DNA from: a virus
DNA length: 17,750 bases
Strand: one strand, 5' to 3'
Virus genome (UHGV): UHGV-0162636
Within the stretch, counting starts at the first letter, position 1. Every line of letters begins with the position of its first letter. The notes under the pieces are model-generated. The model was not told the origin of the DNA. It was given only the letters and a program-made list of their open reading frames with translations, and did not search any database. Positions 50 through 8,113 of the stretch are shown in pieces. The position numbers and the translations under genes were made by a program.

Positions 50-1300
50 TTGCTTACCGATACCAAACTGAAAAATCTGAAGCCGCAGGAGAAACTGTAT
101 AAGGTTTCCGACCGTGACGGGCTGTATGTCGCCGTGCTCACGTCAGGATCTGTCTCGTTCCGCTACGACTACCGCATTAACGGCCGCCGGGAAACGCTGG
201 TGATCGGTCAGTACGGTCGTGACGGTATCAGCCTGGCGGAAGCGCGCGAGGAACTTATTGCCGCCAAAAAGTTGCTGAAGTCAGGCCAGTCGCCTGCTGC
301 GGCAAAACGTGACGGTATCAGGCAGATTTCCAGCGCAGAAACATTCGCGGTATATACCGACGCCTACATGAAATATGTCACCCTGGCCGACAGCACCCGA
401 TCCATGAAGCAGGCGGTTATTGAGCGTGATATCCTCCCGGTGCTCGGAAACAAGATGATGACTGAGATAACCACCAGGGTGGTGCGCGACCTGTGCGATC
501 GTATCGTCGAGCGTGGCGGCCGGGCGAGGGCGATTCAGGTCAGGGAGATAATCAGCAGTGTGTACCGGTATGCCAACGACCGCGGGCACGGCCTGTTCAA
601 TCCGGCTGCCGACATTAAGCCATCATCCATCGCTATGTTTAAGCCGCGCGAGCGCACACTGTCGCCAGAGGAGATCGGCATTTTCTTCCGCGCGCTGGAC
701 GACATCGGAGCGATGGGCACAATGAAGATGGCTCTCAAGCTGGTACTGCTGACGCTGGTGCGAAAAAGCGAATTCACTTACGCGACCTGGGCAGAGATCG
801 ATTTCAAGAAATGGACATGGACGATCCCCGCTGACAGGATGAAGGCCGGGCGTGCGCATGTGATTTACCTGCCGAAGCAGGCGCAGGATCTGCTGGTGGG
901 GTTGCAGATGTGTGCTGGCGGCAGTGAATACCTGGTGCCCGGGCGCTACAACTTCCGTAAGCCGTTATCGAACGCGGCGCTGAACTCGCTGGTAAACCGT
1001 ACCGTGGAGGCCATAAACAGAGACGGCGAGAAGATACAGGACTTCACGGTGCACGACCTGCGCCGTACGGCAAGCACGCTGCTGCATGAAGCTGATTATC
1101 CATCAGACTGGATCGAGAAGGCACAGGCACATGAGCAGAAGGGCGTACGCGCGGTTTACAACAAAGCGGAGTATGCCCGGCAGCGAGCCTATATGTTGCA
1201 GCAGTGGGCAGATATGGTTGATTCCTGGATTAATGGGGAGCACACCGATCTGGTACCGTTCTCCCCGTCGAAGTTTGAGAGGTGGATGGAAAGTCAGTAG
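50..1300 (+). CDS. int: Phage tyrosine integrase (P4-type, with N-terminal arm-binding DUF4102-like region); likely TTG start at 50
   Basis: 416-aa ORF. N-terminal LTDTKLKNLKP...DRDGLYVAV...SFRYDYR is typical of P4-family integrases; C-terminal HDLRRTASTLLHE...Y catalytic region matches the tyrosine recombinase fold. In-frame TGA just upstream limits the start to TTG at 50. Confidence 0.9.
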   Translation: MLTDTKLKNLKPQEKLYKVSDRDGLYVAVLTSGSVSFRYDYRINGRRETLVIGQYGRDGISLAEAREELIAAKKLLKSGQSPAAAKRDGIRQISSAETFAVYTDAYMKYVTLADSTRSMKQAVIERDILPVLGNKMMTEITTRVVRDLCDRIVERGGRARAIQVREIISSVYRYANDRGHGLFNPAADIKPSSIAMFKPRERTLSPEEIGIFFRALDDIGAMGTMKMALKLVLLTLVRKSEFTYATWAEIDFKKWTWTIPADRMKAGRAHVIYLPKQAQDLLVGLQMCAGGSEYLVPGRYNFRKPLSNAALNSLVNRTVEAINRDGEKIQDFTVHDLRRTASTLLHEADYPSDWIEKAQAHEQKGVRAVYNKAEYARQRAYMLQQWADMVDSWINGEHTDLVPFSPSKFERWMESQ

Positions 1301-2834: not shown

Positions 2835-3716
2835 TTACATTGGGACTTCGTTCAGCTCATCTCGGCGGATGGTGTACACGTCAGTGGCTTTAGCCAGTCG
2901 GTCATCGTCGTTAGAGAGCTTGCTGGCAACGTATTTGTATGCCTTGTCCAGATCTTTCAGCGTGTTGTAGTTCATCGCTGCATCAGTGAAGGCGCACAGA
3001 ATTTCTTCTGGATCGCGGTCGTCGCTGCTCTTCGGCTTCTCCTCCTGGTGCTGCTCAGACTTGGAGTTGATCAGTTTGTTCATGCCGGACGCGGTAGCGG
3101 GTGTCGGCGTGATATCGCGCTCAACGCGCGGTGCCGTTTCCTGCAATTCGTCAGGGGTGTACACGCCAAGCAGGACGTCAGGGGAATGCAGGCGAGCCCA
3201 ACGCTTAACGCAAAGGTATGCGAGCTGCTGTCGAGGATCCTGCTCCCATAGAGGGGAGTTCCGAACACCGGCCTGGGCCATGCTGATCGTCAGCTCGCGC
3301 GGCTCTGATTCTCCTTTGAGGGTTGCCCATACGGTAACGGTCAGGTTCGGCGATTTGTCGGATTTCCCGTTTACTTTCGACCAGTCACCATCCCAGCGAT
3401 AATTCAGGCGGGTGGCCAGCAGATTGGAGGAGGACACAACCGCGTTTACCAGCTGCGCTTCATAACCAAGCGTGCCGTTAACCACATGTGTTTTCTGCGC
3501 CACAGCGAACGGGTTCATGCCCCACTGCGCCGCCTGCATGGTCACAGCCAGGCAGTCAGCAGGCTTTCCTGCCAGGTGCGCAGGAACGGTGGCCTTACTG
3601 TCAGCCATCAGGGTTGCGAAACGCACCAGGCGGTCCATGCCCTCAGGGCTGAAGATTGCCGCAGCGGTGCCAACGGTTGCGCCAGGCTGCGATGTGATTG
3701 CGATGTCGTTGCTCAT
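2835..3716 (-). CDS. recT: RecT/Bet-family single-strand annealing recombinase
   Basis: 293-aa ORF. MQAAQWGMNPFA and VERDITPTP segments parallel ANQYGLNPW and ERDITP in lambda Bet as I recall it. Start ATG overlaps the exonuclease stop (ATGA), implying translational coupling. Confidence 0.85.
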   Translation of the reverse strand: MSNDIAITSQPGATVGTAAAIFSPEGMDRLVRFATLMADSKATVPAHLAGKPADCLAVTMQAAQWGMNPFAVAQKTHVVNGTLGYEAQLVNAVVSSSNLLATRLNYRWDGDWSKVNGKSDKSPNLTVTVWATLKGESEPRELTISMAQAGVRNSPLWEQDPRQQLAYLCVKRWARLHSPDVLLGVYTPDELQETAPRVERDITPTPATASGMNKLINSKSEQHQEEKPKSSDDRDPEEILCAFTDAAMNYNTLKDLDKAYKYVASKLSNDDDRLAKATDVYTIRRDELNEVPM

Positions 3717-4830: not shown

Positions 4831-4976
4831 TTGCTCACCCCCATATCCATTTCAGTTTTGACTGCCATCTTGGTGACAAACGCCCAGTTGATGGCCTCAT
4901 GCAGAGTGCGGCACTTAGTGCTCATCAGCCCGCACGCCGTAACGCAGTACCAACCGTTGATGATTTTCCACTGCAT
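4827..4976 (-). CDS. Small hypothetical protein (49 aa), first gene of the early-left operon; not in the ORF track
   Basis: Hand translation: MQWKIINGWYCVTACGLMSTKCRTLHEAINWAFVTKMAVKTEMDMGVSK. GAGGT lies 8-9 nt upstream of the ATG at 4976; the TGA stop overlaps the GTG start of the next gene. Confidence 0.35.
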   Translation of the reverse strand: MQWKIINGWYCVTACGLMSTKCRTLHEAINWAFVTKMAVKTEMDMGVSK

Positions 4977-5127: not shown

Positions 5128-5718
5128 TTAATCTTGCGCTTTACCGTTCTGAACAATCACAAAATCGACGTAGCTCTCAATCTTGCTTTTCTCGCTCTCA
5201 GGTAACAATGCGTAGCGGGCCCGGTCGTAATGGATGGTCGCCGGGTCGCGGGGATGGATGAGCAACTCATAGCCGCGGCGCCCGAACGCGCCAGCGATCG
5301 CCTCCAGGGTGGAGATAGAAACGCTAACCTCATTGTTCAGCATGCGCTGGATTGTCGCCTGGGCAACGCCGGACGCTTTAGACACCTTTCCCTGAGACGA
5401 CAGGTCGCGGTTATTCTGCATCCACGCTTCGAGATTATGCGCCGCCAGCTGGCCGATATCGGAAGGGGTGATCTCCTCCTGCGGTATGGCAACAGCAGAT
5501 AATGAGTGGTCTACGTCCAGCCAGTTCGACGGCTTGTTCGCCGCCTTCTCAATCTTGCGCGCCACCGTGTCGCCGATAACCTTCTGCCCGCGGGCCCAGC
5601 GGTTCACCAGGTTGGCCTGAGTTCCCAGTTTTTCCGCCAGACGAGTCTGCACCCCGTTAAAGTCACGGTCGATGATATCGTTAATATTCTGCCTGCGGAT
5701 ATCCTGAATACTTTTCAT
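5128..5718 (-). CDS. Prophage repressor (CI-like) with two tandem XRE-type HTH domains and no LexA-like S24 peptidase domain
   Basis: 196-aa ORF. HTH-like segments GVQTRLAEKLGTQANLVNRWARGQ and KASGVAQATIQRMLNNEVSVSISTLEAIAGAF. No Ala-Gly/Ser-Lys autocleavage domain visible. Divergent from the Cro-like gene. Confidence 0.8.
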   Translation of the reverse strand: MKSIQDIRRQNINDIIDRDFNGVQTRLAEKLGTQANLVNRWARGQKVIGDTVARKIEKAANKPSNWLDVDHSLSAVAIPQEEITPSDIGQLAAHNLEAWMQNNRDLSSQGKVSKASGVAQATIQRMLNNEVSVSISTLEAIAGAFGRRGYELLIHPRDPATIHYDRARYALLPESEKSKIESYVDFVIVQNGKAQD

Positions 5719-5773
5719 GCTCTGGTGATTCGCCTCATATATGAATTAGTTAGTGGTTCAATTAAAAGCGAAT

Positions 5774-5788
5774 TTACCTCACAGGTAA
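5774..5788. promoter_or_regulatory. 15-bp palindrome TTACCTCACAGGTAA (candidate operator, copy B1) in the repressor/cro intergenic region
   Basis: Perfect TTACCT-N3-AGGTAA in the divergent promoter region; an additional GGTAA half-site follows at 5801-5805. Confidence 0.6.
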
Positions 5789-5821
5789 ATGCACCCGACA
5801 GGTAACAAACCTTGATTATTA

Positions 5822-5837
5822 TTACCTTCTGGGTGAA
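5822..5837. promoter_or_regulatory. Degenerate operator-like site TTACCTTCTGGGTGAA inside a candidate rightward promoter
   Basis: Lies between a TTGATT -35-like hexamer (5812-5817) and a weak -10 upstream of the Cro-like gene. One arm deviates (GGTGA instead of GGTAA). Confidence 0.4.
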
Positions 5838-5872
5838 TATTTGTTATCTGAAATTAATATCAGGCAATAGCT

Positions 5873-6103
5873 ATGAGCGAGAACGAAAAATTCGACTTCA
5901 AAAAACACTGGTTGCAACTCACTCCTGATGAGCGAAATGCCTTTGCTGACGAGGCAGGAACTACCAGCCATTACATCCAGACGCATCTGACAGGTCGCCG
6001 GAAAATGCCAGGTAAGACATTGATGAATGGGCTGTTTAAGGCATGCAAACAGCGCGGATGGGTCAGAACAAAGCCGGAACTGGCCATCTTCTTCTACGAA
6101 TAA
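5873..6103 (+). CDS. Cro-like small HTH regulator (YdaS/Cro family)
   Basis: 76-aa ORF divergent from the repressor; HTH-like LTPDERNAFADEAGTTSHYIQTHLTGRRKMPGKTL. Confidence 0.7.
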   Translation: MSENEKFDFKKHWLQLTPDERNAFADEAGTTSHYIQTHLTGRRKMPGKTLMNGLFKACKQRGWVRTKPELAIFFYE

Positions 6104-6124
6104 AACCTCCCTCTAAACCCCATC

Positions 6125-6147
6125 AGGCCGCCTTCTGGCGGTCTTTT
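6125..6147 (+). terminator. Hairpin plus short T-run after the Cro-like gene (tR1-like position)
   Basis: AGGCCGCC-ttct-GGCGGTC followed by TTTT. Short T tract, so probably a weak or conditional terminator. Confidence 0.4.
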
Positions 6148-6252
6148 CATATCTATTCAGTTCTCTCAGGTAATAATGATCCGAATATGGTTGATCTTTT
6201 TTCGGCCATCGCACAAAATTACCGTAATAGTAAACGTCAATGAGGTTGCGTA

Positions 6253-6462
6253 ATGGAGATTATCACTCGTCTGGACGCTGCAAAGGCAGGTCTTAAGCGT
6301 TATTACACCGGTAAAAAGTGCAAACACGGTCATGACAGTGAGCGTTACGTCTATAACGGCCATTGCGTTGAGTGCGCCATCAACTCAAGTCTGCGCCGCC
6401 AGGCGGAGATTAAACGGATTATGGATGAAGCTGCGAAAGGCAACGTGCCGGAGGTGATCTGA
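6253..6462 (+). CDS. Small zinc-ribbon-like protein in the cII position
   Basis: 69-aa ORF with CKHGH...NGHCVEC (four Cys/His ligand candidates). GAGG Shine-Dalgarno upstream; stop overlaps the start of the O-like gene. Confidence 0.55.
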   Translation: MEIITRLDAAKAGLKRYYTGKKCKHGHDSERYVYNGHCVECAINSSLRRQAEIKRIMDEAAKGNVPEVI

Positions 6463-7232
6463 TGGCCAGCAGCTGGATTAAGGTCGAGGTGATCACCCCT
6501 GATAAGCCTGAAATATTTCAGATAGCCGAGCTACTGAATATCGACCCGGATGCCGTTCTCGGGAAGCTGGTTCGCATCTGGGCATGGGCCGATCAGCAGA
6601 CAATAGACGGTAACGCTGGCAGCGTTACAAAGGGAGTACTGGACAGACTCGCTTTTATTACCGGATTCGCTGATGCATTGATCGCTGTTGGCTGGCTCGC
6701 ATATGTCGACGAAAAGCTGGTACTGCCTAACTTTGAGCGTCACAACGGTGAATCATCGAAAAAACGGGCACTTACAAACAGAAGAGTCGCAGAACACCGC
6801 AAACGTGAAACGCAAAATGTAACGCGAGCAGCGTTACAAAAAGAGTTACCAGAGGAAGAGGAAGATATAAATAAAACCCCTCTCTCTGCGCGCGAAGGAA
6901 TTCAAATCCCTCCCGTTGTCGTTCCAGGTATCGGGGAACCGATCGGCAAATTCACCATGCATGAAAACTGGCAGCCGTCAGATGACTTCGTCATGCGCGC
7001 CAGGATGTGGGGTCATGCACTTCCTGCAGACGGGTACAAGAAATCAGACCTGATTGAATTCATCACCTACTGGATGGCGGAAGGCAATGTGATGCAACAC
7101 GTGCAGTGGGAGCAGAAGTTTGCCCGGCTGCTGATGAACAGGAGAAAAAGAGCGGCAGGAAAGCGCGGTGACAGCTCTGACGATGACGTACCACACTGGA
7201 ACAGCCCTGAGGGCTGGAAGGATTTCTTATGA
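6462..7232 (+). CDS. Phage replication initiation protein (O-like, possibly with DnaT-like C-terminal domain)
   Basis: 256-aa ORF immediately upstream of and coupled to the P homolog. Contains an internal acidic linker (PEEEEDI) and two dyad-symmetric repeats in its coding sequence. Domain assignment is by position and weak recall. Confidence 0.6.
   Translation: MASSWIKVEVITPDKPEIFQIAELLNIDPDAVLGKLVRIWAWADQQTIDGNAGSVTKGVLDRLAFITGFADALIAVGWLAYVDEKLVLPNFERHNGESSKKRALTNRRVAEHRKRETQNVTRAALQKELPEEEEDINKTPLSAREGIQIPPVVVPGIGEPIGKFTMHENWQPSDDFVMRARMWGHALPADGYKKSDLIEFITYWMAEGNVMQHVQWEQKFARLLMNRRKRAAGKRGDSSDDDVPHWNSPEGWKDFL
6610..6628. repeat. Dyad-symmetric repeat GTAACGCTGGCAGCGTTAC (copy 1), candidate iteron or protein-binding site
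   Basis: 7-bp inverted arms GTAACGC/GCGTTAC around a 5-bp spacer, followed by AAAGGGAG. Repeated 209 bp downstream with 23/27 identity. Confidence 0.5.
6819..6837. repeat. Dyad-symmetric repeat GTAACGCGAGCAGCGTTAC (copy 2)
   Basis: Same arms as copy 1; followed by AAAAAGAG and an A/G-rich stretch. Confidence 0.5.
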
Positions 7233-8014
7233 ATAACGTATTCGCAGCAATTCAGAATCGTGATGCTGGTGCCATGGCTCGCATGATGGGCCCGGACAAT
7301 CACCATGATCAGCAGGACAACGTTGTTAACATCAGCGCAGAGCGTCTCGTCGATGCCCTGTTTAAACAGCTTAAGCAACTCTTTCCTGCAGCTGAGCAGA
7401 CCAACCTGAAGACCGCGCAGCAGGAAACCGACGCGAAGCGCCAGTGGATAGCCGCATTCGCTGAAGGTGGGATCCGTACCCGCGAGCAGGTATCGGCAGG
7501 TATGCGTCATGCCCGCGCCAGTGAATCACCGTTCTGGCCTTCGCCCGGGCAGTTCATCAAGTGGTGCAAGGACAGCAAAATGGTGCTTGGCGTGAGCATC
7601 GAGGACGTGATGGGGGAGTTTCACCGTTACGCCAAAGAGAAAAGCTTACAGCCCGGAGGACCTGAGAGATTCCCGTGGCGCCACCCGGTCATGTACTGGA
7701 TTGTATGCGATACCCGCCGTGCGATGTACCAGCGCCAGCTGAGTGAGGTGGAAGTTGAGAGGCATGCGCGCAAACTGCTTGAGGAATGGGCTACGAAAGT
7801 GGCGGCCGGTCACCAGATTCCGGATCCGGTTCTCAGCATCCAGGCGAAGCCAGAGCCGATACAAACACCGGATGACACAGGGGGGAGTGCTTACCACCCT
7901 CCCGGAAAAAGCTTCGGATGCATGCCGAATTCCGCCACCCTTGGAGGGCTGACACCGGCCCAGTGGTTGATGGAGGAATACCGGCGAGGGAAGGCAGCGG
8001 GACTCATCAGGTAG
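7229..8014 (+). CDS. P: Replication protein P homolog (DnaB helicase loader, lambda P family)
   Basis: 261-aa ORF. LFPAAEQTN...KRQWIAAFAEGGIRTREQVSAGMRHARASESPFWPSPGQFIKWCKD aligns by eye with lambda P (FPASLANRDQ...RRQWVLAFRENGITTMEQVNAGMRVARRQNRPFLPSPGQFVAWCRE), recalled from memory. Confidence 0.85.
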   Translation: MNNVFAAIQNRDAGAMARMMGPDNHHDQQDNVVNISAERLVDALFKQLKQLFPAAEQTNLKTAQQETDAKRQWIAAFAEGGIRTREQVSAGMRHARASESPFWPSPGQFIKWCKDSKMVLGVSIEDVMGEFHRYAKEKSLQPGGPERFPWRHPVMYWIVCDTRRAMYQRQLSEVEVERHARKLLEEWATKVAAGHQIPDPVLSIQAKPEPIQTPDDTGGSAYHPPGKSFGCMPNSATLGGLTPAQWLMEEYRRGKAAGLIR

Positions 8015-8051
8015 CACCAGCGCGGCAGCGCATTTTTTTACGCCTGTATAA

Positions 8052-8066
8052 TTACCTTGCTGGTAA
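8052..8066. promoter_or_regulatory. Variant palindrome TTACC-TTGCT-GGTAA (copy C1)
   Basis: Same 5-bp half-sites at the same centre-to-centre spacing as the perfect copies, but the inner base pair differs. Confidence 0.4.
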
Positions 8067-8113
8067 CAAAATATGCGCATAGCTATTTATTTTAACTCTA
8101 ATGTGGATTTAAA

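Follow-up and report, generated by a model that had tools for sequence, protein, structure and literature searches.

Replication initiators of phage λ, phage P22 and phage L carry repeats specific to each initiator type inside their own genes, with binding of the protein to these repeats established for λ and inferred for P22 and L (PMC8022706). In gene 18 of P22 and of phage L, the repeats of the coding region are taken as the origin, and their specificity differs by initiator type (PMC8022706). In this work, we analyzed two dyad-symmetric repeats located inside a replication initiator gene within a 17,750-nt stretch of the virus genome UHGV-0162636, the whole of which is referred to here as the window. 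These repeats belong to two clusters of one lineage-specific half-site, the second of which lies next to a polypurine tract, and our comparisons indicate that they are probably binding sites of the prophage's own initiator, which would together constitute a bipartite, initiator-specific origin working like λ ori. The interpretation is well supported by comparison with related genes and remains within the λ paradigm, lambdoid initiators with type-specific repeats inside their own genes being an already known kind.

With regard to λ ori, the resemblances are several. In both cases the (here candidate) origin is placed midway along the gene of the initiator itself, the next gene encodes a λ P homolog, the sites are 19-bp dyads (7+5+7 in the window, and of the TCCCTC-N5-GAGGGA type in λ), a purine-rich, AT-rich and easily melted tract is found on the 3' side, and a module joint follows just after the origin. 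The second cluster of the window occupies nt 346-388 of the gene, and the λ iterons, located with the same script, occupy nt 349-433 of O. Conversely, the N-terminal domain encoded in the window is unrelated to Phage_rep_O and its C-terminal domain is DnaT-like; the sites are split in two clusters 209 bp apart, whereas λ has four tandem iterons at roughly 20-24-bp steps; one of the clusters lies within the coding sequence of the presumed binding domain itself; and the polypurine tract is near-invariant across the family. The gene 18 systems share with the window the use of their own specific repeats within the coding region, and differ from it, by description, in having tandem arrays (four repeats of ~20 bp in P22, and six of 11 bp in L) for which no split is reported, as well as in encoding proteins distantly related to O. 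The split arrangement with one cluster inside the coding sequence of the presumed binding domain, and the near-invariance of the polypurine element, both appear to be new. A search of the literature, in which the sequences themselves were also searched and few subscription papers were covered, returned no published origin and no binding data for the initiator family concerned (PHROG 2509).

These findings offer a specific prediction of the origin for a large family of initiators, from phages and prophages alike, that is so far unstudied and takes in epsilon15, SPN1S, the Shiga-toxin phage TL-2011b, Rac-type prophages, and phages of Xanthomonas, Pseudomonas and Ralstonia. The λ design would recur here with an unrelated DNA-binding domain, with the N-terminal domain and the origin forming one exchangeable module, and the C-terminal domain and the helicase loader another; the split arrangement of sites, and a polypurine element conserved at the nucleotide level across bacterial classes, are added features. 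The locus would also represent a clear case of cis-acting DNA signals that dictate the amino-acid sequence of the protein reading them, and the prediction may be of practical use in origin annotation, in anticipating replication specificity and the incompatibility of co-resident prophages, and in the design of minimal replicons.

Two clusters of one half-site in the initiator gene

An earlier reading of the window, based on the sequence only, had pointed out two 27-bp dyad repeats 209 bp apart that share 23 of 27 positions and had proposed them as possible origin iterons. The coordinates and the GTAACGC/GCGTTAC arms were verified: copy 1 is GTAACGCTGGCAGCGTTACAAAGGGAG (6610-6636) and copy 2 is GTAACGCGAGCAGCGTTACAAAAAGAG (6819-6845), each with a 7-bp inverted repeat around a 5-bp spacer. 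In a repeat search, the pair extends to 24 of 28 identical positions, with the same distance of 209 bp from start to start; the arms may alternatively be read as 9 bp around one base in copy 1, and as 8 bp in copy 2. The shared 22-mer pattern GTAACGCNNGCAGCGTTACAAA, allowing up to 3 mismatches, was found at these 2 sites alone in the 17.75-kb window; 200 dinucleotide-preserving shuffles yielded no match, for a chance expectation of 0. The repeats start at offsets of 148 and 357 from the ATG at 6462, and are consequently in different reading phases, as originally noted, encoding G-N-A-G-S-V-T in copy 1 and V-T-R-A-A-L-Q in copy 2.

The copies had also been described as few, widely spaced and not tandem. 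The wide spacing holds for two clusters (Table 1), while the picture of two isolated copies does not: the second cluster is a four-half-site array in which the central pair forms the dyad of the second repeat (6819-6837), and the degenerate outer half-sites have one mismatch each. Directly 3' of this array, positions 6851-6876 constitute the least stable 25-step duplex window within the two replication genes (6462-8014).

Apart from the dyads, five lone GTAACGC half-sites were observed in the window at 2349, 4939, 5067, 6342 and 9647, which brings the total to 9 against 1.9 expected, a count reached in 0 of 200 shuffles. Those at 4939 and 5067 lie on either side of the region upstream of the repressor gene, and the one at 6342-6348 lies inside a small open reading frame (ORF) just upstream of the initiator gene.

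Conservation of the arms and concerted change of the sites

For comparison, 94 genes (78 distinct) were gathered from annotated phages and IMG/VR contigs, and we refer to the branch of PHROG 2509 initiators to which the window belongs, with the GTAACGC half-site, as group A, and to the epsilon15 branch as group B. Both dyads were present at equivalent gene positions in every group A relative, down to ~45% protein identity, in elements from E. coli, Enterobacter, Xanthomonas, Pseudomonas and Ralstonia as well as in a phage-like circle of Pusillimonas; for the Xanthomonas, Pseudomonas, Ralstonia and Pusillimonas members, the protein identity is 45-50%. Synonymous sites were examined in 31 representatives with less than 92% nucleotide identity, which provided 76 degenerate columns in which the amino acid is conserved. 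In dyad 1, the four codons of the arms were near-fixed (GGT in 30/31, AAC in 29/29, AGC in 25/25 and GTT in 29/30), with top-codon fractions of 0.97-1.0 versus a mean of 0.55 in the other 72 columns, and displayed the four lowest codon entropies of the 76 (Mann-Whitney p=4e-4). The spacers vary while the arms stay, with 18 different 5-mers at dyad 1 and 23 at dyad 2. Furthermore, among 75 distinct genes dyad 2 is read in two frames, as V-T-x-x-A-L-Q-K in 33 and as G/S-N-A-x-S-V-T in 42. These comparisons indicate that the arms are under selection at the DNA level, independently of the reading frame. The sequence-only reading had anticipated such selection from the different phases of the two copies, and had allowed that the repeats might prove absent or unconserved in homologous genes; they are conserved there far beyond synonymous expectation, and change in step with the initiator's N-terminal domain.

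In relatives, the second cluster has perfect outer half-sites at the equivalent gene positions (346> and 383<), and additional half-sites are found at 12-bp steps. A 12-nt insertion found in Rac-type genes, in a loop between helices, adds one more half-site and four more residues, and it appears that the protein sequence is dictated here by the DNA sites. Where a half-site is in frame, its translation is (G/S/C)-N-A, which yields motifs such as GNAECNARGVT and SNAESNAESNADSVT, which were observed at gene nt 149-180 in three relatives and at gene nt 341-384 in another. Helical phasing between the clusters was also considered and was dropped, as the spacings of 207-216 and 276-300 bp share no phase.

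Alternatively, the palindromes could function by forming hairpins, either in mRNA or in single-stranded DNA, serving as mRNA stabilizers, translational pause sites, or signals for primosome assembly or priming. Each of them folds with 7-8 bp at -9.4 to -12 kcal/mol (z-scores -2.4 to -3.7), palindromic symmetry survives the sequence switches between lineages, and the protein carries a primosomal DnaT-like domain. However, the arms are invariant within lineages and show no co-variation, one-sided changes (GCGTTAG in VW-6S and PAN70) are uncompensated, and two separate hairpins need not share one sequence. Moreover, many half-sites are direct repeats at 11-12-bp steps that are unable to pair, and in CP2, VW-6S and PAN70 a distance of 17 nt separates the two arms of site 2. 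No Rfam match better than E=0.98 was obtained in 5700-8100 and, as regards a terminator, no U-run lies 3' of the hairpin on either strand, with an A-run following it on the + strand and a T-run preceding it on the - strand. Taken together, we regard a hairpin function as highly improbable.

Distant branches of the family use another half-site, which is switched in both clusters together (Table 1). The architecture most often seen among 77 distinct epsilon15-type genes is 55> 66> 79< 101< / 334> 345> 358< 369<, and the codons of the group B half-sites are near-fixed in these genes (0.95 versus 0.68, p=8e-7); as a reciprocal control, the Gly50 codon is frozen as GGT in group A and free in group B. 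Only the N-terminal domain encoded in cis co-varies with the sites in every case, while neither the small upstream ORF, nor the repressor, nor the host tracks them. This bears on a further possibility, already raised in the sequence-only reading, that the dyads are bound by some other protein, such as the 69-aa Cys-rich product of 6253-6462, a CI-like repressor, or a host factor. Indeed, translation of the small ORF is coupled to that of the initiator gene, and the ORF is conserved in BUCT554; nevertheless, it is absent upstream of many dyad-bearing relatives (Rac type, VW-6S, PAN70 and YL1) and has a positional counterpart upstream of the initiator genes of E. coli EC2 and Klebsiella phage ST512-KPC3phi13.3, whose dyads differ. 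As for the repressor, the operator-like repeats at 5760-5850 have a different sequence (TACCTCACAGGTA type), by which we also rejected the dyads as repressor operators. A host factor is excluded by the half-site differing between groups A and B in the same hosts (Enterobacteriaceae, Pseudomonas and Ralstonia). In view of the constant co-variation with the N-terminal domain, another binder seems very unlikely.

The purine tract, the module joint and a candidate mechanism

Across the family, the second cluster always lies directly 5' of a polypurine tract, of which the window contains a shorter and altered version. Phages of Salmonella, Klebsiella, Pseudomonas, Xanthomonas and Ralstonia share the tract AGAGAAGAGAAGAGAAGAGAAGA without a single nucleotide difference. 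Among its Arg codons in six phages of GC-rich hosts, 17/17 are AGR, versus 17/101 elsewhere in the same genes (Fisher p=1.7e-11); from this codon usage and from the nucleotide identity across hosts we therefore conclude that the tract is selected as DNA.

Some further observations concern this tract. In phages of Gamma- and Betaproteobacteria it takes the form of a 23-26-nt (AGAGA)n string at gene nt ~375-425, which forces rare AGA codons in genes with 52-65% GC. By inspection, (AGAAG)4A, a 21-nt stretch at the core of the canonical tract, forms a perfect homopurine mirror repeat that could adopt the H-DNA structure; the tract of the window is no mirror repeat.

The second cluster is adjacent not only to the least stable duplex but also to a mosaic joint. 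Similarity to TL-2011b-type sequences stops at ~6881, and similarity to E. coli EC2 and Klebsiella phage ST512-KPC3phi13.3 starts at ~6870, directly 3' of the second repeat and the conserved tract. Upstream of the joint, from gene nt 1 to ~410, the relatives are TL-2011b and many E. coli prophages (~83%) and Rac-type prophages (~72%); gene nt 408-771 together with the P gene are related to Klebsiella phages and E. coli EC2 (87-100%). EC2 and KPC3phi13.3 thus represent a natural domain swap: they share window positions ~6870-8013 at 87-100%, but neither their N-terminal domain nor their dyads at the equivalent mid-gene position (AGTACCGTA..TACGGTACT) are related to those of the window. By these comparisons, the C-terminal half and P are inherited as one block.

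The N-terminal domain of EC2 and KPC3phi13.3 constitutes a third initiator type (MARIRTIKPEFW...), with overlapping dyads of the AGTACCGTA-TGAG-TACGGTACT type at gene nt 333-365, noted at 1430-1500 of both records; no relation to the N-terminal domain encoded in the window was found on comparison. In ST512-KPC3phi13.3, three tandem TCAGGGA 7-mers follow the dyads, and there is no polypurine tract.

The position of the joint directly after the conserved tract, as well as the free swapping of C-terminal domains among proteins of 247-378 aa, could be taken to mean that the conserved sequences are recombination linkers that promote mosaic exchange, rather than protein sites for replication. On the other hand, the dyads are specific to lineages and not common to the modules, the first cluster is 260 bp away from the joint, and linkers leave dyad symmetry, the 11-12-bp phasing and the concerted switch unexplained. 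We consequently give hardly any weight to this explanation, which would at most account for an added selection on the purine tract.

In the bipartite origin that we favor, the N-terminal domain would be the binder, and initiator dimers would use it to occupy the 19-bp dyad at 6610-6628 (cluster 1) as well as the array of four half-sites at 6807-6849 (cluster 2). The clusters, 209 bp apart, would be joined by protein-protein contacts, through looping or wrapping as in the O-some of λ, and the resulting strain would melt the neighboring tract (6851-6876). The C-terminal DnaT-like domain would then recruit the λ P-DnaB complex, encoded or loaded by the next gene, and the locus would fire as an origin. 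The earlier proposal of origin iterons is hence supported by the conservation of the repeats and by an easily melted purine- and AT-rich tract located mid-gene as in λ, with origin activity and binding by the initiator being what we infer from comparison.

The dyads could instead be regulatory or copy-control sites bound by the initiator, acting as an autoregulatory roadblock in its own gene or through handcuffing, with the true origin located elsewhere. The comparative support for initiator-specific sites fits this explanation equally well, and it is separable from a bipartite origin only through the flanking tract and the analogy with λ. In iteron plasmids such as P1 (incC/incA), F and R6K, two groups of iterons hundreds of bp apart can pair via the Rep protein by looping or handcuffing, with an unwinding element beside one of them; these sets flank the rep gene instead of lying inside it, monomers bind the iterons, which are direct repeats, and the Rep proteins are of different families. 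The window is similar to them in its two separated groups of sites and in the presumed unwinding element beside one, and is distinct in its in-gene dyads. The two-cluster split with variable spacing resembles control iterons, and Rep dimers of iteron plasmids repress via inverted repeats. Against a purely regulatory role, the replication region showed no further repeat array and no further AT-rich candidate, the second cluster always lies just 5' of a purine tract conserved at the DNA level and of the least stable duplex, its position matches that of the λ iterons within O, and the sites are inside the gene, far from the promoter region (5719-5872). Overall, we consider control sites with an origin elsewhere to be unlikely.

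Beyond the bipartite origin, a more tentative extension is a three-part origin grammar, undescribed for any phage, in which a lineage-specific array of two dyads, '> > < <' at 11-12-bp steps, might nucleate the complex, a remote copy in the part of the gene coding for a loop of the binding domain might loop to that array, and the (AGAGA)n element would complete the set. Equally speculative is that a conserved part of the initiator, or else the helicase-loading machinery, could recognize the near-invariant (AGAGA)n element in single-stranded form or in some unusual structure, which would make it a phage counterpart of DnaA-trios; and that the (G/S/C)-N-A repeats and REEKRRE may largely be passengers of DNA signals. 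Rep has been described as binding one strand of the DNA-unwinding element (DUE; PMC4081077). With DnaA-trios and Rep-bound DUEs, the element shares a short-period repeat beside the duplex sites of the initiator, a strong strand asymmetry and conservation at the DNA level; it differs in its 5-nt, all-purine period and in the shorter, altered version found in the window (AGAGGAAGAGGAAGA), and its reading as single-stranded DNA is hypothetical.

The initiator protein, its neighbors and related elements

The first 140 aa of the initiator match PHROG 2509, annotated as 'replication initiation protein' (E=1.8e-73 over aa 1-135), and gave no Pfam match even at E<=10, and no NCBIfam match. An AlphaFold2 model of aa 1-125 had a mean predicted local distance difference test (pLDDT) score of 73.8, derived from a shallow alignment of 61 homologous proteins, mostly fragmentary, and consisted of three helices, a beta-hairpin (aa 80-87) and a long basic helix (98-124). 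Structure searches with this model returned weak matches, many of which are winged-helix modules; the domain is thus predicted to be winged-helix-like, which is compatible with DNA binding and no proof of it.

Homology of this domain to λ O was rejected, as Pfam, NCBIfam and hhalign show no relation. In the same scan, the λ O control matched Phage_rep_O (PF04492) at 5.7e-36, and hhalign gave a probability of 0.2% between the family profile and the λ O N-terminus. The Phage_rep_O domain, which defines the λ O family, was looked for in the initiator and is lacking, and the protein is therefore not a member of that family. Using BLASTP, a single 31-residue match to λ O was obtained (E=0.012), which lies between the C-terminal parts. 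Accordingly, the description of an O-like gene with a λ-like in-gene origin, given in the sequence-only reading, stands as a functional analogy and fails as homology.

Table 1. Coordinates of the initiator gene, candidate origin elements and neighboring features in the window, and positions of the equivalent sites in distant relatives (gene nt).
Feature	Position	Strand	Remarks
Cluster 1, 19-bp dyad GTAACGC-TGGCA-GCGTTAC	6610..6628	none	In loop-coding segment D-G-N-A-G-S-V-T
Cluster 2, four half-sites	6807..6849	none	12-bp steps, '> > < <'
Cluster 2 half-site GAAACGC	6807-6813		
Cluster 2 half-site GTAACGC	6819-6825		
Cluster 2 half-site GCGTTAC	6831-6837		
Cluster 2 half-site GAGTTAC	6843-6849		
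Polypurine tract AGAGGAAGAGGAAGA	6851..6865	+	Shorter, altered local version of the family (AGAGA)n tract
AT-rich stretch ATATAAATAAAA	6865..6876	none	With the purine tract, presumed DNA-unwinding element
Mosaic joint	6870..6881	none	N-terminal domain + origin module meets C-terminal domain + P module
Replication initiator gene, 256 aa	6462..7232	+	ORF; N-terminal PHROG 2509 domain + origin module, C-terminal DnaT-like domain
N-terminal domain coding region, aa 1-125	6462..6836	+	Presumed origin-binding domain; winged-helix-like in AlphaFold2
DnaT-like single-stranded DNA-binding domain, aa 164-233	6951..7160	+	Pfam PF17948, E=3e-17
λ P-family helicase loader gene	7229..8014	+	Pfam PF06992, E=1.3e-55; overlaps the initiator stop codon
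Sites of epsilon15, SPN1S, BUCT711, phiPSA1 and RPZH6	Cluster 1, nt 54-107; cluster 2, nt 333-390		Half-site TGTCCGC
Sites of Raharianne	Cluster 1, nt 141-185; cluster 2, nt 357-390		Half-site TGTAGACG
Sites of Vibrio 1.211	Cluster 1, nt 165, 198; cluster 2, nt 358, 372		Half-site TGTCACA

The C-terminal part of the initiator also matches NCBIfam DnaT partially, and its DnaT-like domain presumably contacts P, the unwound DNA, or both. Relatives of PHROG 2509 were found in 68 phage records with tblastn, and each of two scans of IMG/VR matched more than 570 stretches; members of the family are annotated as 'DnaT-like ssDNA-binding domain-containing protein', 'primosomal protein I', 'replication initiation protein' or 'hypothetical protein'. 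The domain PF17948 is not universal among them, being absent from Rac-type, PAN70 and Raharianne proteins. The C-terminal type follows that of the neighboring loader in the examples examined, with DnaT accompanying λ P, and other C-termini accompanying DnaC-like or DnaB-like genes.

Upstream of the initiator gene, the 69-aa ORF (6253-6462) encodes a Cys-rich protein (C-x2-H ... C-x2-C; PHROG 1081), and its stop codon overlaps the initiator start (ATCTGATGG). A 210-nt ORF overlapping the initiator start, identified by position and length only, is also found in BUCT554, EC2 and KPC3phi13.3, whatever the N-terminal type. The region between the repressor and the early right genes (5760-5850) contains operator-like repeats, tandem in the case of AATTTACCTCACAGGTA / AATGCACCCGACAGGTA and inverted in that of CAGGTAACAAA / TTTGTTATCTG, and is the least stable duplex of 5700-8100.

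The Rac prophage has been reported to have an active origin, oriJ (PMC3945230). Rac-type prophages of other E. coli strains are similar to the window in carrying a group A initiator with GTAACGC dyads, beside the DnaC-like gene ydaV. The YdaU protein of K-12 Rac has a DUF1376 (PF07120) N-terminal domain unrelated to that of the window. We considered whether the element in the window is an allele of K-12 oriJ and rejected it, the N-terminal domain of YdaU having no similarity and the repeats being different (TGTTCAAACA); as both domain and repeats differ, oriJ as cloned from K-12 is therefore a different allele. In the mid-gene linker of K-12 ydaU (nt 392-460; record 3011-3080), TGTTCAAACA occurs twice and its inverted form TGTTTGAACA once, and these are candidate iterons of the classical oriJ. 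Their relative position in the gene is the same as that of the dyads in the window.

Two plasmid-like records also carry related sequences. The E. coli plasmid pE16EC1016-8 (CP088505.1) is a 52,198-bp circular molecule with no typed replicon, in which a Mu-like phage segment (transposase, AAA ATPase and Gam) is joined to the same prophage remnant at 99.8-99.9% identity, with the initiator gene and both its dyads present; it may be either a real extrachromosomal element using the candidate origin or an assembly artefact. The second is the phage-like Pusillimonas circle, of 41 kb. Being two only, and compatible with assembly errors or excised phage DNA, these records are suggestive and were not used as proof of autonomous replication.

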